This document shows, piece by piece, positions 3,789-17,955 of a stretch of DNA of 22,993 nt. Within the stretch, counting starts at the first letter, position 1; each line of letters opens with the position of its first letter. This stretch comes from a virus (Duplodnaviria > Heunggongvirae > Uroviricota > Caudoviricetes). Location of the stretch: IMG/VR virus record IMGVR_UViG_3300000292_000175. One strand, 5' to 3'. Position numbers and translations under genes: made by a program. The notes beneath the pieces are model-generated. The model searched no databases and had not been told where the DNA came from. It was given only the letters and a program-made list of their open reading frames with translations.

Positions 3789-4115
3789 TCAAGGACGTGA
3801 CGGCGTAAAGATAAATTGTCTCTTCACTCCCTGACAGGGGCGATTCTTTTCAAATCGCCATTTCGCCATGGCCTTCACCACTTCATCACGAAACAAATTA
3901 TGAGGCTCTGAGCGGAGAAAAACGATCCGTGTCACAGTCCCATCAGCACCAATATCGAACTTAACCTCAACCAGCCCCTTGATATAATTTGCTGCAGCAT
4001 ATTCCGGATATCGTGGATACACCGTCACTAATTGCCGGGGCTCATCAGCTTTTTGCTGCGAGCATCCCACTGCCAGGACAGATAACAGAAAAAGTAGTAA
4101 AAGGCGTCTTTTCAT
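3789..4115 (-). CDS. Lipoprotein with TonB C-terminal-like domain
   Basis: Start taken at MKRRLLLLFLLSVLAVGC (lipobox LAVGC). C-terminal region YPRYPEYAAANYIKGLVEVKFDIGADGTVTRIVFL...AKWRF fits the TonB_C pattern. Confidence 0.55.
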   Translation of the reverse strand: MKRRLLLLFLLSVLAVGCSQQKADEPRQLVTVYPRYPEYAAANYIKGLVEVKFDIGADGTVTRIVFLRSEPHNLFRDEVVKAMAKWRFEKNRPCQGVKRQFIFTPSRP

Positions 4116-4595
4116 TTTTATTCCTACGGGTCTTATTCTGACAATATATCCTGTGTTCCAGACTGCCACATCACCACATCCTGTGCCATTATCTGACTCA
4201 CATTACATACATCGCATCGGGATACAGTAGTAGCACTTTCTGTAATACAGCTTCCTGTTTCTTCCACCATCGCACCGGGATAAACCCGCGAATCATTAAC
4301 GCGGTAAAAACCCGGTGTGCATCGTTTTTAATTATTCCCGCACACTCACGCAGAAGGAATTCCCCGTCGGGCTACGGTCATGGTTAATGCGGGAATACGG
4401 CGACGATACAGCGCAGCTAAAAGGGTAATGGACGGATAGACCGGTTTATTTCATTCCACAGGATTCTGAGTGTCCCCAACTTCCTCCAATAGTCTGAGCC
4501 CACCTGTGTAGTTTTAATTTTCATCAATCCATTTAACTATCGTTTAATTGTTGTCACATAGGATTCTGCCGTTTTTAACAATGCAGGATAATAAG

Positions 4596-4889
4596 ATGAA
4601 AAAAATGTTGTTTTCTGCCGCTCTGGCAATGCTTATTACAGGATGTGCTCAACAGACGTTTACTGTTGGAAACAAACCTACAGCAGTAACACCAAAGGAA
4701 ACCATCACCCATCATTTCTTCGTTTCGGGAATTGGGCAGAAGAAAACTGTCGATGCAGCAAAAATTTGTGGTGGTGCAGAAAATGTTGTTAAAACAGAAA
4801 CCCAGCAAACATTCGTAAATGGATTGCTCGGTTTTATTACTTTAGGCATTTATACTCCGCTGGAAGCGCGTGTGTATTGCTCACAATAA
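4596..4889 (+). CDS. bor: Bor lipoprotein (serum-resistance lipoprotein)
   Basis: 97-aa product MKKMLFSAALAMLITGCAQQTFTV...LEARVYCSQ, near-identical to lambda Bor as recalled. Opposite strand to the lysis genes, as in lambda. Confidence 0.92.
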   Translation: MKKMLFSAALAMLITGCAQQTFTVGNKPTAVTPKETITHHFFVSGIGQKKTVDAAKICGGAENVVKTETQQTFVNGLLGFITLGIYTPLEARVYCSQ

Positions 4890-4920: not shown

Positions 4921-5382
4921 CTATCTGCACTGCTCATTAATATACTTCTGGGTTCCTTCCAGTTGTTTTTGCATAGTGATCAGCCTCTCTCTGAGGGTGA
5001 AATAATCCCGTTCAGCGGTGTCTGCCAGTCGGGGGGAGGCTGCATTATCCACGCCGGAGGCGGTGGTGGCTTCACGCACTGACTGACAGACTGCTTTGAT
5101 GTGCAACCGACGACGACCAGCGGCAACATCATCACGCAGAGCATCATTTTCAGCTTTCGCATCAGCTAACTCCTTCGTGTATTTTGCATCGAGCGCAGCA
5201 ACATCACGCTGACGCATCTGTATGTCAGTAATTACCGCGTTCGCCAGCGTCAGTTCTCTGGCATTTTTGTCGCGCTGGGCTTTGTAGGTAATGGCGTTAT
5301 CACGGTAATGATTAACAGCCCATGACAGGCAGACGATGATGCAGATAACCAGAGCGGAGATAATCGCGGTTACTCTGTTCAT
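4921..5382 (-). CDS. Rz: Rz inner-membrane spanin
   Basis: 153 aa from [43 protein letters not shown], essentially lambda Rz. ATG overlaps the R stop. Confidence 0.9.
4980..5162 (-). CDS. Rz1: Rz1 outer-membrane lipoprotein spanin, embedded in Rz in the +1 frame
   Basis: 60 aa [24 protein letters not shown]...PPPPPAW..., matching lambda Rz1; lipobox VVGC; lies wholly inside Rz. Confidence 0.85.
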
Positions 5383-5876
5383 TGCTGACCCCACAAACAG
5401 ATTTCACGCTCAATCTCACGACGAGTCATGAGACCTTTCCATTGCTTACCGCCAGCATATGTCCAGCGACGTAGCTGATCACATGCGCCTTTGATATCGC
5501 CCTGGTTTATTTTGCGAAGAAGCGTCGATGTTCTGAAATTGCCAGCACCCACGTTGTAAACGAATGAGTAAAGAGCGCCGCGCATTGTTTCCGGTATATC
5601 GACTTTGATGTACGGGTTAATTTGTCTGGCGACCGTGGCAAGGTCTTTATTCAGGAGGGCTTTGCATTCTGCTTTGGTATACGTTTTACCGAGCATGATG
5701 TCTTTTCCTGTATGCCCGTGACATACAGTCCATACACCAACAATATCTTTGTATGGTATGTAGCTGACACCTTCCAGACCATCGTTACCACTTGGGCCAG
5801 TGATTAACACTGATGCTATAGCAATTGCTCCGCCACCAATAGCAGCAGCAACGGCTTTTCGTAATGATGGAGGCAT
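5379..5876 (-). CDS. R: SAR endolysin (T4-lysozyme-like, phage-21 R type)
   Basis: 165 aa. N-terminal Gly/Ala-rich weakly hydrophobic segment [23 protein letters not shown] (signal-anchor-release-like), then [25 protein letters not shown] with E-D-T spacing typical of GH24 lysozymes. Not lambda R. Confidence 0.88.
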
Positions 5877-6091
5877 TATTCACCTCTCGCAGCCTTGCGC
5901 TTATCTTCTTTAATCTTGAAATAAAGGTTTGTCAGGTACGTCAGCAGGCCAAATACCAGGCTACCCAGCACACCTATTGCCGCCCACTGTGAGGGCGTGA
6001 CTTTATCGAGCAACTGTAAAAACCAGTACCCGGCACTACCTGCTGAGGTACCATAGGCGACACCCGTTGTTAACTTATCCATGGATTTCAT
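5876..6091 (-). CDS. S: Class II holin (pinholin, phage-21 S type) with dual-start motif
   Basis: 71 aa [28 protein letters not shown]...[14 protein letters not shown]...KRKAARGE; Met1 and Met4 dual start; two predicted TM segments; directly upstream of the SAR endolysin. Confidence 0.86.
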
Positions 6092-6234
6092 AACCCCACC
6101 TCGCAGACAAAGCGGGTGTAAATTAAGGGGATACTACGTATCGCAATAAAGGCAGAAACGTAACAGATTCGGAGTCAGTGAATAACTCAGGTATTGGGTT
6201 ATCAGCTAATATCGAGACTCAAAAAATGGAAAAA

Positions 6235-6253
6235 CCCGCTCGACGGCGGGTTT
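6235..6253 (-). terminator. Intrinsic terminator hairpin (cccgc/gcggg stem) with a U-run on the minus-strand side
   Basis: aaaaaCCCGCtcgacgGCGGGttt; on the minus strand the hairpin is followed by tttttccatttttt. Lies between the porin upstream region and S. Confidence 0.45.
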
Positions 6254-6679
6254 AAGCTGTGTGACGAAGTAACCACTCTTAACAGCATAACCAATTTTTT
6301 ACGTACGTAAACTACTAAATGATATTTGTGAGAATGCCACCGAGTGTTCAAAACACCACCACAAATGCATAAGAAAACTTCAACAAATAACCAGTTAATA
6401 ATTTCCGATGTTATTTTTAGTTTGTTTAAATTAAGCTAAAGAATTATAGAGCACTTATAAATAAGTGCCATTAATATAAATTAGCTAATAGATTTATTTT
6501 TGTTCAGACAAGAGCCATGAATAGGATTAGATAGAAAAGGTTCAGATAAAAATAGAGATCTACTTCACAAATTAAATGAGAAACTAAAACTTACATCTTG
6601 AAATAATCACATTGATTAGATGAATATTTATCGCGCAGTGACATCATTTTTTAATAATAGTTCAAAAAAAGGGCGTACA

Positions 6680-7762
6680 ATGAAAAAATTAACAGTGGCA
6701 ATTTCTGCTGTAGCTGCATCAGTACTGATGGCGATGTCTGCTCAGGCAGCTGAAATTTATAATAAAGACAGTAACAAGCTGGATCTATACGGGAAAGTTA
6801 ATGCCAAGCACTACTTCTCCTCTAATGATGCAGATGATGGTGATACTACTTATGCCCGTCTTGGCTTCAAAGGTGAAACCCAAATCAACGATCAACTGAC
6901 TGGTTTCGGTCAGTGGGAATATGAATTCAAAGGCAACCGTGCTGAATCTCAAGGTTCTTCCAAAGACAAAACCCGTCTTGCATTTGCAGGCCTGAAATTT
7001 GGTGATTACGGCTCAATCGATTACGGCCGTAACTACGGTGTAGCATACGACATCGGTGCGTGGACTGACGTTCTGCCAGAATTCGGTGGTGATACCTGGA
7101 CCCAAACAGATGTGTTCATGACTGGTCGCACTACTGGTGTTGCAACTTATCGTAACAACGACTTCTTTGGTCTGGTCGATGGCCTGAACTTTGCTGCTCA
7201 GTATCAGGGTAAAAATGACCGCACTGACGTAACTGAAGCCAATGGTGATGGTTTCGGTTTCTCCACTACTTATGAGTATGAAGGATTCGGCGTGGGTGCA
7301 ACCTATGCTAAATCAGATCGCACTGACGGTCAGGTCGCCTATGGTAAGAGCAAATTCAATGCCTCCGGCAAAAATGCGGAAGTATGGGCTGCAGGCCTGA
7401 AATATGATGCGAACAATATCTATCTGGCTACCACATATTCTGAAACTCAGAATATGACCGTTTTTGGTAATAACCATATTGCAAACAAAGCACAAAACTT
7501 TGAAGCAGTAGCACAATATCAGTTTGACTTCGGTCTGCGTCCATCTGTTGCTTACCTTCAGTCAAAAGGTAAAGACCTTGGTGTTCATGGTGACCGAGAC
7601 TTAGTCAAGTATGTCGATGTCGGTGCTACTTACTACTTTAATAAAAACATGTCCACTTTTGTTGATTACAAAATCAACTTAATTGACGATAGTAAGTTTA
7701 CCAAAACAGCTGGTATTGATACCGACGACATCGTCGCTGTAGGTCTGGTTTATCAGTTCTAA
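6680..7762 (+). CDS. nmpC: Outer-membrane general porin (OmpC/OmpF family), prophage-borne NmpC/Lc type
   Basis: 360 aa with signal peptide [23 protein letters not shown], porin hallmarks ([25 protein letters not shown]-terminal VAVGLVYQF). Opposite to Q and S, matching the DLP12 quuD-nmpC-essD layout. Confidence 0.9.
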
Positions 7763-7780
7763 TCTGACTTACGAAAAAGA

Positions 7781-7814
7781 TATGTTGCGGGAGGCTTTGC
7801 CTCCGCAACATATA
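7781..7814 (-). terminator. Hairpin with U-run on the minus strand; candidate tR' for a short late-promoter transcript
   Basis: tatgttgcgggaggc-tttg-cctccgcaacata; the minus-strand reading is followed by tctttttcg. Lies downstream (minus sense) of Q. Confidence 0.4.
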
Positions 7815-7890
7815 AGTGGAGCCCTCAAGCCACTTCCTTTAGAAGCACTACCTTGCTTCTTACTATATAAACCTTCTGTTATATATTACC

Positions 7891-7914
7891 CTTTATTTTG
7901 GGGGCGTTTCCACG
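7891..7914 (+). terminator. Intrinsic terminator (GGGGCGT/ACGCCCC stem followed by ATTTTT), probable porin terminator
   Basis: ggggcgt-ttcc-acgcccc followed by atttttaat on the plus strand, about 130 nt past the porin stop. Confidence 0.55.
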
Positions 7915-7950
7915 CCCCATTTTTAATAACTTTTAGTAAACAATTGCATA

Positions 7951-8334
7951 TCAATTAGAATTATTAGCAACGATATCCATATCTAACCGGATATCTAATG
8001 CCATTAACATCCCTTCAATTATGCCCTCAGCCTTCTGTAACCTTTTCCCGATATAACCATCCGAGCAGCAATGCTTACTTGCCAGTGACATGAATGTCAT
8101 ACCACATACATAATAATCTACTAATAAATCGTGTAAATCGCTGTTGTTCTTTTTCAGACGGGCCATGCACCCGCAAATGATCATCGCGTCATCGTCACAA
8201 CATTGCGGGCGAGATTTTACTTTTGAAGGAATTAATCCCTTAAAACCGGCGGCAATGGACGACCAGGTCACATCTTCATGATTATTAGCCGCCCACGCAC
8301 CCCAACGCTCAAGAACCATCTGAATATCACGCAT
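7951..8334 (-). CDS. Q: Late-gene antiterminator Q (phage-21/DLP12 QuuD type)
   Basis: Product from [24 protein letters not shown]... with Cys cluster [15 protein letters not shown], matching E. coli QuuD as recalled. Start taken at the internal Met at 8334. Confidence 0.85.
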
Positions 8335-10971: not shown

Positions 10972-11669
10972 ACACTTGCTCCTTTCAGTCCTAACTTAGC
11001 TTTAATTTCTGCGATCTTCGCCAGCGCCTGAACACGATTTAGAGGTCTGCCGCCCATGACAGGAAGTTGTTTTACTGGTTCAGGTATCGTCTCACCACGG
11101 TTAATTCGCGCTGTCATACAGGTCAGTTCATCGGCAGCCTTGCGTCGTAATTCCGCGTCAGTCAGCGCATTGGCCCGCATGTTCTGGTACAGGTTGGTAA
11201 CCAGCCAGTAGTGCGCGTTCGATTTCCACGGATAAGACTCTGCATCCGGATACAGGCCTCGCTTCCGGCAATACTCGTAAACCATATCAACCAGCTCGCT
11301 GACGTTTGGCAGTCCGGCGATAACGGATGCTTCTTCCCGGCACCATGCAACAAACTGCCCGGGTGATGGCAGAAATGGTCGATTCTGCCGACGGGCTACG
11401 CGCATTCCTGCGTTAACCTGTTCCATTGTGGTGATCCCGTTTTCCCGGAAAGCCAGAACCCACTGGCGGCGGATTTCGTTCAGTTCGTTCTGGTCACGGT
11501 TAGCCAGACTCGCCGGGAAAGTTGCCAGTAACTGGCTGAACACACCGTTGATGATCTGCGCTACCTGCTGTACCTGCGGCTTTTCGTCGTACTGTTCCGG
11601 CATGTTGTTGGCGATCCGACGCATCTGCTCACGGTCAAAATTAACCATCTGTGCGGCGATGTTTTTCAT
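10968..11669 (-). CDS. P: Replication protein P (DnaB helicase loader)
   Basis: 233 aa, near-identical to lambda P as recalled (MKNIAAQMVNFDREQMRRIANNMPEQYDEKPQVQQVAQIING...). Confidence 0.95.
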   Translation of the reverse strand: MKNIAAQMVNFDREQMRRIANNMPEQYDEKPQVQQVAQIINGVFSQLLATFPASLANRDQNELNEIRRQWVLAFRENGITTMEQVNAGMRVARRQNRPFLPSPGQFVAWCREEASVIAGLPNVSELVDMVYEYCRKRGLYPDAESYPWKSNAHYWLVTNLYQNMRANALTDAELRRKAADELTCMTARINRGETIPEPVKQLPVMGGRPLNRVQALAKIAEIKAKLGLKGASV

Positions 11670-12643
11670 AAATCCACCCCGTAAATCCAGTCAGTGTTTG
11701 TCAGGTCGAGTTTTGGTTTGCAGGCTGTCACACCTGCCTGTTGCTTGTTACGGTTGATTTCGAGCTGGGTCCACTTGTCGCGGAGTTTGGCCGGGCTCAG
11801 CACGTTACCGGACCAGAAGTTGTCCTGGCATGCCCAGCGGAACAGTACACACATGTCGCGATGGTTACGTCCGTCACGTTCACGCATCAGGCGGATATCG
11901 TTAGCCCACCCTGCAAAATTCGGTTTTCTGGCTGATGGCGCGATGGTCTTCACCATGTCAAACATCCATTCTGCGGCGGTCAGGTCTTCTGCTGTCCCCC
12001 ACTTGCTGCCGCTCTGAATTGCAGCATCCGGTTTCACCACAGAAAGGTCGTTTTCTGGCTGGTCAGAGGATTCGCCAGAATTCTCTGACGAATAATCTTT
12101 TCTTTTTTCTTTTGTAATAGTGTCTTTTGTGTCCCCCTGTTTTGAGGGATAGCAATCCCCCAATTTGAGGGATGTTTTATCCCTCGTTTTAGGGGATTTT
12201 CCCTCGTTTTGAGGGATACACCATTCTGAGATGTTTTTATTTGGTCCAAACATGCCGCCTTGCTGCTTGATAATATTCATTCTGACGAGTTCTAACTTGG
12301 CTTCATTGCACCGTTTGACGGGTAACTTTGTAATCTCGCTAAGTTGAGAATCGGTGATTCTGTCCATTGGTTTATTCCATCCATAGGTTTTACGCAGAAT
12401 GGCAAGCAGCACTTTAAACTGTCGCTTGGTCAGATCTGCGCCTGAATAAGCCTCAAGCAGNNNNNNNNNNNNNNNNNNNNNNNNNNNNNNNNNNNNNNNN
12501 NNNNNNNNNNNNNNNNNNNNNNNNNNNNNNNNNNNNNNNNNNNNNNNNNNNNTGGCGTAACCATCATCGAGATCTGCCACATTACGCTCCTGTTTGGCAA
12601 AGTTACCTCTGCAGAAGTTGAGTATTTTTGCTGTATTTGTCAT
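11666..12643 (-). CDS. O: Replication initiator O (contains ori-lambda); interrupted by N-run 12461-12552
   Basis: MTNTAKILNF...LLEAYSGADLTKRQFKVLLAILRKTYGWNKPMDRITDSQLSEITKLPVKRCNEAK... matches lambda O as recalled. True length unknown because of the N-run. Confidence 0.9.
   Translation of the reverse strand: MTNTAKILNFCRGNFAKQERNVADLDDGYAXXXXXXXXXXXXXXXXXXXXXXXXXXXXXXXLLEAYSGADLTKRQFKVLLAILRKTYGWNKPMDRITDSQLSEITKLPVKRCNEAKLELVRMNIIKQQGGMFGPNKNISEWCIPQNEGKSPKTRDKTSLKLGDCYPSKQGDTKDTITKEKRKDYSSENSGESSDQPENDLSVVKPDAAIQSGSKWGTAEDLTAAEWMFDMVKTIAPSARKPNFAGWANDIRLMRERDGRNHRDMCVLFRWACQDNFWSGNVLSPAKLRDKWTQLEINRNKQQAGVTACKPKLDLTNTDWIYGVDL
12085..12217 (-). repeat. ori: ori-lambda: four about 19-bp iterons (12132-12217) plus adjacent AT-rich region (about 12085-12130) inside O
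   Basis: Four tandem inverted-repeat units tccccctgttttgagggat / atcccccaatttgagggat / atccctcgttttaggggat / tccctcgttttgagggat, followed in the O sense by ttctttttcttttgtaatag. Confidence 0.85.
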
Positions 12644-14139: not shown

Positions 14140-14697
14140 TTGGCAAAAATAGATGATTATCAGCCAAGCCAAGTAGAAGTTGATAAAGTACTTTATTGTA
14201 AAAAAATAGTTAACTTTTCTGGCGTTAAATGGAAACAGAAACCAAGTCGCTCTGATATGTGGCTACAAGCCCATATCATCCCCTTGGATGAGGATTGTAT
14301 ACCTATACAAGGGCTAAAGTTTGAACTGAAATGGAAACCAGATCAGGATTCAGAACCTGATGACCCGATTTCTTACCCTAAAATAAATATTATTGCTTTC
14401 TATCATAACAAGAGGGTTTTCGCGGTAGATACCTATCACTTTGACAAACACACGAATAGTTACAAGGTCGATCATCCGAAGTACCAAGATATCATTTACG
14501 GTGCTCACTACCATGTATACTATGAAGAAGCTGGATACTATAGTGATAGAATAGCGTTTCCAATCGAAGATGACATAAACCCAGATGACCTGGTAGGGTA
14601 TTGGAATTACTTCTGTAAACATCTGAACATAACTTACTCTGGGAGAATACCTTTACCGCTTGAAGATGAGTCGGGGCAAATGGGGTTTGGAATATGA
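14140..14697 (+). CDS. Hypothetical protein, gene 1 of a two-gene cassette in the rexA position
   Basis: 185-aa ORF, apparent TTG start at 14140 (no in-frame ATG nearby), AGGGCGG 7 nt upstream. AT-rich by eye. Acidic and Tyr/His/Trp-rich; no motif recognised. Confidence 0.55.
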   Translation: MAKIDDYQPSQVEVDKVLYCKKIVNFSGVKWKQKPSRSDMWLQAHIIPLDEDCIPIQGLKFELKWKPDQDSEPDDPISYPKINIIAFYHNKRVFAVDTYHFDKHTNSYKVDHPKYQDIIYGAHYHVYYEEAGYYSDRIAFPIEDDINPDDLVGYWNYFCKHLNITYSGRIPLPLEDESGQMGFGI

Positions 14698-15446
14698 TGT
14701 GCTCAACAGTGATCTCACAACTAGGTTTCGAATGCCATCCAATAGGCAAGACCTTGAGAATTATCAGTCCATTCACTTACTGTGATGATGGAGAGCATGT
14801 CGGTGCCTTTATCCGTGAAGTCAATGGTAGGTATTTAGTTAGTGACAGATGCGATGCCTTAATGAATATGGAGGCAAGAGGGATCTCGCTTACCAAAAAA
14901 CGACTTGATGAGATACGACAATTACTGCTTAAAGAAGGCGCAGAACTCAATGCTCGAGGAGAAATCATTGCTTGGGCAACAGAAAAGGATGTCGGTGCGA
15001 TTACATCGAACATAATTAGAGCTGGTATACTCGCATCAACTTTGTCGTTAGACTGGTATCAGCCAGTTCAAGCTGAAAAGTTTGAAAGTATGGTTATTGA
15101 TTATCTATATCACACAGAGCTTAGAGACGCACTTTCTCTTCGTGAAAACGTATATGGCTTGAGTGGACATCAAATTACCGTCCCTGTAACAATAAAAACC
15201 GACATACCTAAATACGTTTTTACATCAAGCGTGAAACACGGAGGAAGCTGGAATAGTGCTTACTCATTGCTTGGGAAACTAATTGATCTTAAAGCTTCAA
15301 GTGAGGAGTATAACAACAGATTTGTTGTTATAGACAGCGAAGCAATTGGTGATCAAATGCAACAACTCTCCTTACTCTTCCATGAATCAAGCCAAGTTCT
15401 ACCATTCTCCAAAAGAGAGACTTGGGTTAAGAGACTTGCAGCATAA
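14694..15446 (+). CDS. Hypothetical protein, gene 2 of a two-gene cassette in the rexB position
   Basis: 250-aa ORF; ATG overlaps the gene-1 stop (ATGA); GGGG RBS. AT-rich by eye; no Walker or nuclease motif recognised. Confidence 0.6.
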   Translation: MMCSTVISQLGFECHPIGKTLRIISPFTYCDDGEHVGAFIREVNGRYLVSDRCDALMNMEARGISLTKKRLDEIRQLLLKEGAELNARGEIIAWATEKDVGAITSNIIRAGILASTLSLDWYQPVQAEKFESMVIDYLYHTELRDALSLRENVYGLSGHQITVPVTIKTDIPKYVFTSSVKHGGSWNSAYSLLGKLIDLKASSEEYNNRFVVIDSEAIGDQMQQLSLLFHESSQVLPFSKRETWVKRLAA

Positions 15447-15784: not shown

Positions 15785-15882
15785 GATCACCCAACCACAT
15801 AAGCTGTGGGATGCAATGCCGAAGCAACCGTCTCAGGAGGAGCTTCGAGATTGCATCGCCAAAGTTTATTCGGGAGGAATCC

Positions 15883-16155
15883 ATGTCCAGAAAAACAGAA
15901 TTTAAAGGCACCGCAGCTTCTCGCCGTAGAGCTCGTCGCGCAAATCTGCAAAGTCAGGAGGCGATCAGCTCCGACAAGCTACACAGGCCAACCCCTTCAC
16001 GAGTGGTCTTGCAATGCAAGCTCAAACCAGCAATGAGAGCAGAAGTGATAACTCTGACAACGTTGACCAGAAAATATGAAGGTTCAACTTGTCTTCCGAA
16101 CGTAGCTCTTTACGCGGCAGGCTACCGGAAATCAAAACAACTGACGGCGAGATGA
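15883..16155 (+). CDS. N: N-like antiterminator (arginine-rich motif)
   Basis: 90 aa MSRKTEFKGTAASRRRARRANLQSQE...; GGGAGG RBS before ATG 15883; first gene after nutL. Not lambda N. Confidence 0.7.
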   Translation: MSRKTEFKGTAASRRRARRANLQSQEAISSDKLHRPTPSRVVLQCKLKPAMRAEVITLTTLTRKYEGSTCLPNVALYAAGYRKSKQLTAR

Positions 16156-16171
16156 TAAATTCATTTGCTAA

Positions 16172-16726
16172 TTACTTGTTTTTGCCATGCTTATCCTGAG
16201 CGATAAGTTCATCCATAAGGCTGTCTGCCTTCCCGGCAAACCTAATGTAGCACTCATGTCTATAGCTTTCAGGGATAACGAAACGGTCGGTATCAGGATA
16301 TCCAACAGCAGGAGGCCTTCGAACGAGGAGTCCTTTTTTGAGCAATGAAATTGATTCATGAGCGCCCTTTTCCGTTTGTAGCTGGTTATTAGCGGCTACA
16401 GCGAATGCCAAATACGCTCTTTCTCCAAGAGTTAACGAATCAAACAAATCTTGCACATATTTTTCTTCTTTAGATTTGCGCTTCTGAGCAGCGAATACCT
16501 CAATTCTTTCAGTCACAGCGTGATAAGCGGAATTAACAACGCCGTTAAGCACATAGCTAACGCAAAACAACAGGATGTAATACATCCAGTAATGAGGAAG
16601 GATTTCTGGATTATGCAGGTTTATCCATTCTTTTACGCTTACCGGCATAACAATAATCAATATGATCAGGATGATTAGCATATGAATCAACTGTTTAAGT
16701 GTCATTCCTTGCAGGAAAAAATGCAT
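16172..16726 (-). CDS. sieB: Superinfection exclusion protein B (SieB)-like membrane protein
   Basis: Convergent with N, between N and ral as lambda sieB. N-terminal TM segments LIHMLIILIILIIVMPV and YWMYYILLFCVSYVL. Start uncertain (Mets at 16753, 16726, 16705). Confidence 0.55.
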   Translation of the reverse strand: MHFFLQGMTLKQLIHMLIILIILIIVMPVSVKEWINLHNPEILPHYWMYYILLFCVSYVLNGVVNSAYHAVTERIEVFAAQKRKSKEEKYVQDLFDSLTLGERAYLAFAVAANNQLQTEKGAHESISLLKKGLLVRRPPAVGYPDTDRFVIPESYRHECYIRFAGKADSLMDELIAQDKHGKNK

Positions 16727-16896
16727 TAGTTCCTGCCACCATGAGTTGTTCATCGGCGTTTCTCTTTTGCTCTCTGTAGGGGTGAATAGAGTTTATCCGA
16801 TTTCTCGTTGTAGGGGTACACGAGAACCACCGAGCCTGATGTGGTTAAAAGACAGGCACAATCTTTACTACCGCAATCCACTATTTAAGGTGATAT

Positions 16897-17718: not shown

Positions 17719-17790
17719 GCGCGGCGTTACCGCATACCAATTACGCTTCACTCGAGGCGTTTTTCGTTATGTATAAATAAGGAGCACACC

Positions 17791-17955
17791 ATGCAATATG
17801 CCATTGCAGGGTGGCCTGTTGCTGGCTGCCCTTCCGAATCTTTACTTGAACGAATCACCCGTAAATTACGTGACGGATGGAAACGCCTTATCGACATACT
17901 TAATCAGCCAGGAGTCCCAAAAAATGGATCAAACAATTATGGCTATCCAGACTAA
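17791..17955 (+). CDS. cIII: CIII (FtsH inhibitor)
   Basis: 54 aa [54 protein letters not shown] by hand translation, near-identical to lambda CIII. GGAG RBS. Confidence 0.9.
   Translation: MQYAIAGWPVAGCPSESLLERITRKLRDGWKRLIDILNQPGVPKNGSNNYGYPD

Follow-up and report, generated by a model that had tools for sequence, protein, structure and literature searches.

A complete general porin gene of the NmpC/Lc type lies between the antiterminator gene Q and the lysis genes, and on the opposite strand to both, in IMG/VR record IMGVR_UViG_3300000292_000175 (here the window, meaning the whole stretch of 22,993 nucleotides that was analysed). Our reading, to which we give a probability of about 0.78, is that this gene is an intact, independently transcribed moron, that its cassette sits between Q and the late promoter unit, and that late transcription bypasses the porin. 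Sequence comparison established the identity and intactness of the gene, the boundaries of the cassette, and the conservation of a unit that adjoins Q in relatives; the assignment of that unit as the late promoter is argued below. The features of the region are listed in the table.

Table. Features of the porin region and its neighbours, in window coordinates
Feature	Position	Strand	Details
Lysis cassette	4921..6091	-	S21-type holin 5876-6091; SAR-type lysozyme 5379-5876; Rz 4921-5394; embedded Rz1 4980-5162
Candidate late leader and terminator tR'	6222..6274	-	Stem AAACCCGC/GCGGGTTT (6253-6232), T-runs to 6221 (terminator scan, fold)
Candidate pR'	6275..6311	-	37-nt motif: TTTACG (-35, 6311-6306), 16-nt spacer, TATGCT (-10, 6289-6284), GTTAAGAGT
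AT-rich spacer, distal part of porin cassette	6315..6551		~26% GC; between porin promoter and candidate late-promoter unit
Porin promoter region	6552..6635	+	CRP-like site AGAGATCTACTTCACA ~6552-6572; -35 TTGAAA 6598-6603; -10 ~6622-6628; start ~G6635
NmpC/Lc-type general porin, intact	6680..7762	+	Signal peptide residues 1-23 (6680-6748); C-terminus ...VYQF
Porin 3' UTR, IpeX equivalent, ~164 nt	7763..7926	+	Ends in terminator GGGGCGTTTCCACGCCCC + ATTTTT (7901-7918)
Intrinsic terminator for transcription arriving from Q	7775..7813	-	16-bp hairpin 7813-7780, then CTTTTT (sequence, fold, inverted-repeat search)
Late-gene antiterminator Q, QuuD type (Q21/Q933W family), 127 aa	7951..8334	-	RefSeq quuD

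An intact NmpC/Lc porin gene

The porin is encoded by a 360-aa ORF that is stop-free up to its single terminal stop codon. The mechanically called ORF runs from 6620 to 7762, and the true start, the ATG at 6680, was chosen by homology to the annotated start and signal peptide of lc together with the RefSeq annotation. The product is WP_000737271.1, to which the UTI89 and CFT073 proteins are identical. It matches Pfam Porin_1 (PF00267) over profile positions 1-337/337 (E=1.9e-151), as expected of the general-porin class, and scores 521 bits against the NCBIfam model "porin OmpC" (cut-off, 484). The alignment to mature OmpC covers residues 1-343, from residue 1 through the C-terminal Phe, and the top solved relatives are OmpC variants (E ~1e-137). 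Its 23-residue signal peptide is identical to that annotated for PA-2 Lc, and the protein ends in YQF.

Over its full length, the protein shares 90.7% aa identity with PA-2 Lc and likewise with the IS5-repaired (joined) K-12 NmpC, and these two are 98.9% identical to each other. Residues that differ from K-12 NmpC cluster at 182-187, 216-231, 263-267, 302-312, and 335-347, short patches that are probably surface loops. Neither an IS element nor a frameshift was found in the window gene, whereas K-12 nmpC carries IS5 after codon 346. These results bear out much of the initial annotation, which had described a complete OmpC-family porin with its own signal peptide on the plus strand between minus-strand Q and S, had recognized the NmpC/Lc arrangement of DLP12 and PA-2, and had judged the gene intact and free of a K-12-type IS interruption.

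Judged by sequence, then, the feature is the already known NmpC/Lc lysogenic-conversion porin of E. coli prophages. Descriptions of the porin, its location, and the RNA from its 3' UTR date from the 1980s to 2000s, and the window adds another intact allele in a UPEC-type prophage. The same gene order, with the porin opposite in strand between Q and the lysis genes, is found in K-12 DLP12, phage 434B, and PA-2. The source element looks complete and on sequence grounds is a lambdoid prophage identical to one in the UPEC strains UTI89 and CFT073; positions 6100-7950 have 100% nucleotide identity to UTI89 and many B2 strains. More broadly, the porin region is present in 3339/5426 complete E. coli genomes (~60%) and in 43 phage records; at least 40 sequenced phages carry it as packaged DNA.

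The unit at 6311-6222 and the proposed start of late transcription

The window Q matches PF06530 across profile positions 1-118/118 (E=6.7e-54), which places it in that family, and distantly matches the Q21 structures 6P18/6JNX (E=4e-8). Its homology to the Q of one relative (L017) stops at 7976, and the last ~8 codons (7975-7951) lie beyond homology with porin-less relatives. Comparison thus delimits a porin cassette of 1.66 kb (~7975-6315), with a distal boundary between 6351 and 6314, that separates Q from the 6311-6222 unit. Within the cassette lie the tail and stop codon of Q, a pair of terminators that face each other, the porin ORF with its 3' UTR and promoter, and the AT-rich spacer; no flanking repeats were found at its junctions. 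We propose that it was inserted into the short gap that would normally lie between this Q type and its late promoter.

The 37-nt motif that opens the unit is unique within the window, and none of 100 shuffles matched it. It bears the palindrome TTTACGTACGTAAA at its -35, and transcription is predicted to start at ~6277-6280, with an initial transcribed motif, GTTAAGAGT, that holds a lambda-like pause element, AAGAGT (6280-6275). Positions 6276-6261 form a short conserved inverted repeat, GTGG-N8-TCAC, and the unit ends 130 nt upstream of the holin. The positions of the unit that do not vary correspond to a promoter (TTTACG and TAnnnT, always 16 nt apart), and the terminator stem varies by genus with pairing and T-run kept (CCCGCC/GGCGGG, CCTGTCA/TGACGGG, CCTCAC/GTGGGG, and CCTTGC/GCAAGG). 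These stem variants were read directly from the sequences; the covariation statistics from RNAalifold are weak because MAFFT misaligned the terminators. The 6253-6232 terminator region is also present in SfII and SfIV, ahead of a different holin.

Across genomes, the motif follows Q. A single copy lies on the Q strand in 30/43 loci, and in Q-oriented loci it is without exception on that strand, downstream of Q. Where there is no porin, it stands 3-28 nt past the Q stop codon in 19 genome loci, which span seven or more genera (E. coli, Shigella, Trabulsiella, Pantoea, Citrobacter, Xenorhabdus, and Providencia). Eighty IMG/VR contigs carry the motif, and a Q homolog lies upstream in 70/70 that have enough upstream DNA: adjacent (<=46 nt) in 24, beyond a porin in ~38, and beyond other cargo in 8. 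This comparison is built on more distant Q relatives because the exact Q allele is porin-linked; no phage or E. coli genome with the exact window Q allele and no porin was found in the phage collection, and in E. coli the Q gene and the porin 3' UTR nearly always occur together. In the phages L005 and L006, Q is 88% identical but has a different putative recognition helix (RSDCWVGRM vs CSDGYIGKR), the 6311-6275 motif is missing, and a different promoter and terminator follow Q. Among Q-carrying loci, the type of recognition helix and the motif co-occur.

From this conservation we infer that the 6311-6222 unit is probably the functional pR'-tR' of this Q subfamily and that one of its conserved inverted repeats is a putative Q-binding site. 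Since the unit adjoins Q in porin-less relatives and the cassette now lies between the two, late transcription should start downstream of the porin. Q made from the early operon would act 1.6 kb away, at the unit, and late transcription would begin near 6277 and enter S, R, and Rz without crossing the porin. The initial annotation had said that late transcription driven by Q has to cross the porin gene antisense, which assumes a late promoter directly after Q; that claim is unsupported, given the 19 loci and 24 contigs without a porin that carry the S-side unit after Q. N-antiterminated early transcripts that pass through Q may still read the porin antisense.

Some observations count against a late promoter at this site. 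The candidate pR' matches the sigma-70 consensus at only 8/12 positions, and the conserved elements of the unit are inverted repeats, whereas Q21 binds direct repeats. In the K-12 data sets queried, Term-seq yielded porin-sense 3' ends only, with no plus-strand 3' end at 5771xx-5772xx (the candidate tR'); SMRT-Cappable-seq recovered the porin start but no essD transcription unit; and the Cappable-seq data gave no match for a late promoter.

An unlikely alternative places the late promoter within the 190 bp that separate the Q gene from the end of the porin ORF, with the hairpin at 7813-7780 as tR' and Q-modified polymerase reading the porin cassette antisense to S. Canonical cassettes do have pR' right after Q, and in L005/L006 the promoter and terminator that follow Q precede an antisense lipocalin gene. 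Moreover, a strong minus-strand intrinsic terminator lies 140-175 nt past the Q stop codon, and its T-run is kept only where Q is present, being intact in the window, DLP12, and PA-2 and reading TTTGAG in relics without Q and lysis genes. Read in the porin direction, this hairpin forms the first stem of the plus-strand 3' UTR. A weak TGGAAA-18-TAATAT sequence at 7912-7883 is followed by a pause-like TATAGT element, and its -35 reads TTGAGA in DLP12, but the spacer is 18-19 nt long, 8/12 consensus positions match, and no good sigma-70 promoter was found in these 190 bp of the window. Against this placement, porin-less relatives with the same recognition helix have the 6311-6222 unit and none of the 190 bp. 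This DNA belongs to the porin 3' UTR, because it travels with the porin (2480/2505 E. coli records) and survives in relics that lack Q. In addition, K-12 Term-seq lists no Q-sense 3' end at 5744xx-5745xx.

A DLP12 reporter comparable to the published lysis-operon fragment reportedly responded to Q. We consider it quite improbable that the Q-responsive lysis promoter is the published essDp, an RpoE-type promoter (GAACT at 6663-6659, N16, TCACT) that would fire on the minus strand from ~6631, divergently from the porin promoter. Pasqua et al., who cite both Q and RpoE as regulators of the DLP12 lysis operon, cloned a fragment from -121 to +650 relative to that start; their primer puts -121 at window position 6752 and hence +1 at ~6631. 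That RpoE-dependent placement in the published DLP12 work counts against the 6311-6222 unit, and the essDp sequence is conserved. The cloned fragment (window 6752 to ~5981) nevertheless holds the 6311-6222 unit as well as essDp, so that a response to Q cannot discriminate between them. The essDp block is also conserved in relics without lysis genes, because the porin 5' UTR and promoter lie there (porin start, ~6635), and it stands next to Q in no porin-less relative. Furthermore, characterised Q proteins load at sigma-70-dependent pauses. A separate sigma-70-like sequence, ATGGCA-17-TATAAT at 6471-6443 with a palindrome in its spacer, was considered as pR' and rejected because the palindrome and the -35 are unconserved in PA-2 and DLP12 and because it is located in the AT-rich "promoter island."

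Extending the proposed 6311-6222 start to other phages, we think it likely that the QuuD-type late promoter has the form TTTACGWWCGTAAA, N7, TAnnnT, GWTAAGAGT, followed by a terminator, and that the gap of a few nucleotides which separates Q from it serves repeatedly as a cargo slot whose morons are expressed in the lysogen and bypassed by late transcription. E. coli phages carry the porin in this slot; in Citrobacter braakii it is occupied by an antisense cassette of three genes, and elsewhere by ORF6N or membrane proteins. Lambdoid phages would thus have a place for cargo insulated from late transcription. The proposal offers a testable late-promoter location for a widespread type of Q, which occurs in >2500 complete E. 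coli genomes, and conflicts with the published DLP12 promoter assignment; if it is true, the RpoE-type essDp has been mislocated by ~350 nt. As the cassette appears to precede the late promoter, Q-modified polymerase is not expected to meet porin transcription head-on, which changes the porin expression to be expected during induction.

Porin expression in the lysogen

The region upstream of the porin had been described as very AT-rich over ~400 bp, and this was confirmed: positions 6260-6680 have 28.5% GC, compared with 45.8% for the whole window. Of all 421-bp stretches in the window, the one with the lowest GC begins at 6270, and just 0.6% have a GC content of 30% or less. The K-12 equivalent of the AT-rich spacer is listed as an H-NS-associated "promoter island." The best-conserved part of the upstream region, relic copies included, is the promoter block, whose CRP site is annotated in the PA-2 record. 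The porin start at ~6635 is the K-12 SMRT-Cappable-seq start at 576,870, transferred via MG1655 coordinates and alignment. In K-12, 5' RACE placed the start of PnmpC at a "G," and the promoter is a sigma-70 promoter activated by CRP; together with the start at 576,870, this supports the view that the porin has a promoter of its own. The window porin would accordingly be transcribed from its own CRP-dependent sigma-70 promoter, starting near 6635 and heading towards Q, and its transcript would stop at a terminator 25-50 nt short of Q.

The 3' UTR (7763-7926) is strongly structured (fold z=-7.2), is 94-96% identical to those of DLP12 and PA-2, and corresponds to the IpeX RNA. K-12 Term-seq places 3' ends both at the homologous terminator (574,367) and beyond the first hairpin (574,476). 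According to a review, IpeX is a 167-nt RNA that forms part of the porin transcript; it is reported to lower OmpC and OmpF. A gathering scan of the window with Rfam gave no match to an IpeX family; the sole Rfam match in the window was the lambda cIII thermoregulator.

Related expression data come from UPEC. In CFT073, nmpC/c1560 was induced at 37 C at both the RNA and the protein level and was increased in urine; we assume from its position that the c1560 tag is the locus encoding the identical protein. NmpC was found in 89% of UPEC outer-membrane proteomes. As for what the porin does for the lysogen, we infer that an NmpC/Lc-type gene would supply a third general porin. That the gene is instead silent or decaying cargo that does nothing for the lysogen, as the IS5 inactivation of K-12 nmpC without obvious phenotype and the AT-rich upstream region, H-NS-associated in K-12, might suggest, is scarcely credible given the intact ORF, the detection by proteomics of the identical, temperature-induced CFT073 protein, and the persistence of an intact porin and its regulatory flanks in prophage relics otherwise stripped of everything.

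Comparison with known systems

The closest counterpart is NmpC of DLP12, which has the same position and orientation between quuD and essD and shares the promoter block, the 3' UTR (two hairpins plus terminator), and the candidate late-promoter unit upstream of essD. The two differ in that the K-12 gene is split and resides in a defective prophage, whereas the window gene is intact and its prophage apparently complete. PA-2 Lc shares the signal peptide, the annotated CRP site, and the flanking lysis genes, but the window porin is a different allele in the variable patches and is five residues shorter. PA-2, whose lysogenic conversion goes with down-regulation of OmpC, is reported to use OmpC as its receptor and to show an exclusion phenotype.

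Among general porins, OmpC, OmpF, and PhoE (and Salmonella OmpD by annotation) have the same full-length Porin_1 domain. Unlike chromosomal OmpC, the window porin is phage-borne, has indels at alignment positions 178-181 and 219-224, and has its own CRP-type regulation.

With the canonical Q cassettes of lambda, 21, 82, and 933W, the window shares a Q21/Q933W-family Q, a promoter, a pause-like element, a terminator, and lysis genes. However, pR', pause element, and terminator do not directly follow Q in the window: the candidate unit lies 1639 nt from the Q stop codon, so that the distance from Q to its proposed site of action is 1.64 kb in the window and 3-46 nt in relatives. Like the window porin, the stx morons and the lipocalin gene of L005/L006 are cargo between Q and S. 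Those morons lie after pR'-tR' and are crossed by late transcription, whereas the window porin lies between Q and the candidate pR' and would thus be bypassed.

An intact porin between Q and the lysis genes

As described in the initial annotation, an intact porin gene lies on the plus strand between Q and S, both on the minus strand. The region contains a lone long plus-strand ORF, which begins mechanically at ATG 6620. Its real start was placed at ATG 6680 because of homology to annotated PA-2 lc, including a 23-residue signal peptide, because RefSeq annotates the identical segment of UTI89 in the same way, and because a transcription start maps to about 6635. Read from ATG 6680, the product has 360 amino acids, and a check for premature stops found none besides the terminal one. 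The upstream region 6260-6680 is indeed very AT rich (28.5% GC versus 45.8% for the whole window), and the window's lowest-GC 421-bp stretch begins at 6270.

Coordinates and remarks for features of the window other than the porin and the late-promoter candidates
Feature	Position	Strand	Remarks
Q	7951-8334	-
S21-type holin (S)	5876-6091	-
SAR-type lysozyme	5379-5876	-
Rz/Rz1		-	Same strand as Q, holin and lysozyme
CRP-like site	about 6552-6572		Within 140-nt promoter block; matches PA-2 annotation
iss/bor	4593-4889	+	Serum-resistance lipoprotein gene (Pfam Lambda_Bor, RefSeq 'Iss'); just downstream of Rz, antisense to late operon; this moron sits downstream of the late promoter, unlike the porin
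Small lipoprotein-like ORF	3789-4115	-	TonB C-terminal domain; between lysis genes and terminase; PHROGs label 'Rz-like spanin' (doubtful); no PADLOC match
Two overlapping genes	14140-15446	+	rexAB position, directly downstream of cI-like repressor; one is DUF1828 by RefSeq name; weak matches to PADLOC candidate defence system PDC-M24 (A, E=5e-4; B, E=5e-10)
N antiterminator	15811-16155
sieB	16172-16753
lambda cIII thermoregulator RNA element	17778-17836	+	Perfect match (Rfam RF01804, 88.5 bits)

The protein matches the general porin family Porin_1 over its full length (E=1.9e-151) and the NCBIfam model 'porin OmpC' at 521 bits (cut-off, 484), and its best solved relatives are OmpC variants, the alignment spanning mature residue 1 through the C-terminal Phe. 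Identity is 90.7% both to PA-2 Lc and to K-12 NmpC, once the two NmpC fragments around IS5 are joined. Differences from Lc and NmpC cluster in five short patches (182-187, 216-231, 263-267, 302-312, and 335-347), and residues 1-180 are nearly invariant. Because two of these patches coincide with indels relative to OmpC, the patches are probably surface loops.

UTI89 and numerous other B2 strains share segment 6100-7950 at 100% identity, and versions of the segment were present in 3339 of the 5426 complete E. coli genomes as well as in 43 phage records. The window does not follow UTI89 along its whole length (compare about 11666-12643): beginning in the replication-gene region, its ORF coordinates are offset by 78 bp from those of the UTI89 locus, and the O-like ORF is longer. 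In the lambdoid phage records examined, the porin has the window's orientation and adjoins the same Q. The order Q, nmpC, S is also that of MG1655 and, with nmpC::IS5, of phage 434B, a 434 derivative that acquired this region from K-12. Identity and gene order thus bear out the proposed NmpC/Lc arrangement of DLP12 and PA-2, which has already been described, together with its IpeX 3' UTR. P7-type plasmid prophages carry a copy too, an nmpC 81% identical in a quite different context (H199), and IS1 is inserted within the porin-holin intergenic region in E. coli UPEC_U013 (H1/H203) and in H228.

Compared with a porin-less E. coli relative (L017), homology breaks off at 7976 next to Q and picks up again at 6314 toward S, about 47 bp of the relative corresponding to 1661 bp of the window. 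The cassette comprises the last eight codons and stop of Q (a tail that varies among all relatives), a pair of terminators facing each other, the IpeX 3' UTR, the porin ORF with its promoter, and the AT-rich spacer. No flanking repeats were found at the cassette junctions. A prophage relic in E. coli MY504 (L007 2413-3824) and A22 (L010 3501-4868), arranged emrE-ybcL-ybcM-[Q 3' stub]-porin-yedK, no longer has Q, the lysis genes, or the late promoter; all that remains is an intact porin (94% identical) with its 3' UTR and roughly 330 bp of upstream sequence, which suggests that the porin cassette was kept on its own.

Expression and signals of the porin

CFT073 encodes an identical protein (WP_000737271.1) in an identical context. 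Published work found CFT073 nmpC/c1560 RNA and protein strongly increased at 37 C and the protein more abundant in urine; we assume from position that c1560 is the locus matching the window porin. A review places NmpC in 89% of UPEC outer-membrane proteomes.

In K-12, SMRT-Cappable-seq gives a reverse-strand transcription unit, b0553/b0552, starting at 576,870. The nmpC ATG is at 576,825, and the interval contains no indels relative to the window, so the porin start maps to G6635, giving a 45-nt 5' UTR. A 5' RACE study likewise found that PnmpC starts at 'G' and described a sigma-70 promoter with CRP as activator and OmpR, IHF, and MprA as repressors. The 140 nt before the porin ATG is the best-conserved part of the porin-holin intergenic region, even in relic copies. 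The remaining AT-rich stretch is poorly conserved, and its K-12 equivalent has been listed as an H-NS-associated 'promoter island'.

Downstream, the 3' UTR (7763-7926) folds far above shuffled sequence (z=-7.2) and terminates in GGGGCGTTTCCACGCCCC plus ATTTTT; in K-12 Term-seq, porin-sense transcripts end precisely at the homologous terminator (574,367) and also past the first hairpin (574,476). This is the region of IpeX, a 167-nt RNA that is made within the porin transcript and reportedly lowers OmpC.

Position of the late promoter

Although the porin identity given in the initial annotation stands, its mechanism, in which Q-dependent late transcription must cross the porin antisense, is probably wrong: in porin-less loci, 6314-6230 is the sole recurring part of the window's Q-to-S interval and lies directly after Q. 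Four late-promoter candidates were weighed. The preferred one, TTTACG-16-TATGCT at 6311-6284, is a modest consensus match (8/12) followed by a terminator at 6253-6232. This candidate is 100% conserved among the window, PA-2, and DLP12 and is partly common to SfII and SfIV, ahead of an unrelated holin. Transcription would start at about 6277-6280, ending at about 6225 without Q and proceeding 130 nt into S with Q. Neither a start site nor a 3' end for this unit appeared in the K-12 SMRT-Cappable-seq and Term-seq data searched; perhaps DLP12 is silent at this position, or those methods miss a leader this short or rare.

The published essDp is an RpoE-like minus-strand promoter (GAACT-N16-TCACT) with +1 at about 6631, a position derived from the primers and the '-121 to +650' span given by Pasqua et al. 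The cloned 'essDp' fragment corresponds to window 6752 to about 5981 and thus contains the 6311-6222 unit. This DLP12 fragment reportedly responds to Q, which fits a late promoter at 6311-6284.

A promoter directly 3' of Q, as the initial annotation assumed, is probably not the late promoter; the best match there is only TGGAAA-18-TAATAT at 7912-7883. The Q-adjacent region also holds a strong minus-strand terminator (7813-7775), best read, if only suggestively, as an insulator stopping unmodified polymerase arriving through Q. Where Q is present this terminator keeps an intact T-run, which has decayed in relics without Q (one lineage). Since the prophage encodes N, N-modified early transcripts passing through Q could cross the porin antisense early after induction; any such crossing would be N dependent, not Q dependent. 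The fourth candidate, ATGGCA-17-TATAAT at 6471-6443, was rejected, its -35 and palindrome not being kept in PA-2 or DLP12.

The proposed promoter unit among Q relatives

Because Q and porin are never separated in close relatives, distant Q homologs were fetched from species-representative genomes. The window has one occurrence of the pattern TTTACGWWCGTAAAA-N7-TAnnnT-GWTAARMRT, which none of 100 shuffles reproduced, and 30 of the 43 loci have a single copy, on the Q strand. Its -35 begins 3-28 nt past the Q stop in 19 loci (from E. coli, Shigella, Trabulsiella, Pantoea, Citrobacter, Xenorhabdus, and Providencia), 139 nt past it in one Citrobacter locus, and 1639 nt past it in the window. An IMG/VR scan yielded 80 motif loci; a same-strand Q homolog lies upstream in every one of the 70 whose contigs extend far enough in that direction (24 Q-adjacent, about 38 porin-separated, and 8 separated by other cargo). 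In Citrobacter braakii (L023 4390-6728), the gap between Q and the late promoter holds a different 2.3-kb, opposite-strand cassette of three genes, whose products are one 345-aa membrane protein and a pair of small proteins; neither of the two products scanned matched Pfam.

Conservation falls on promoter positions (TTTACG, a spacer of invariably 16 nt, and TAnnnT); a conserved GWTAAGAGT follows, in which AAGAGT resembles the lambda pause-inducing AACGAT. Next come a small inverted repeat and a GC hairpin that varies in sequence among genera with pairing and T-run kept. The conserved repeat GTGG-N8-TCAC in the proposed late leader (6261-6276, minus strand; L003 1067-1087) coincides with a CRP-binding site annotated in the 1986 PA-2 record, and one of its pairs shows covariation between genera, AU becoming GC; the repeat is a candidate RNA hairpin, CRP site, or Q site.

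All motif-bearing loci have CSDGYIGKR as the putative recognition helix of Q. In phages IdasGreatGrand and Lambda_ev087 (L005 and L006), Q is 88% identical overall with RSDCWVGRM in this helix; the motif is absent, and a different promoter (TTGCTG-17-TAACAT) and terminator follow Q. Given this paired change, the motif appears to track the DNA-binding part of Q, as expected of a cognate site.

Modest new content lies in the proposed cognate late-promoter unit of QuuD-type Q proteins and in viewing the Q-to-pR' gap as a recurring cargo slot. In IdasGreatGrand and Lambda_ev087, an antisense Blc-like lipocalin gene follows Q's promoter and terminator (L005 4394-5073, L006 4894-5574), a moron that late transcription would cross. 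In Shigella phage SfIV, whose Q is only 52% identical, a bidirectional-looking terminator comes at once after Q (L004 944-990), then IS1, two antisense genes, and a leader and terminator shared with window 6290-6231, preceding an unrelated holin. The conserved unit after Q matches the published definition of a Q cassette, namely, Q, promoter, pause element, and terminator.
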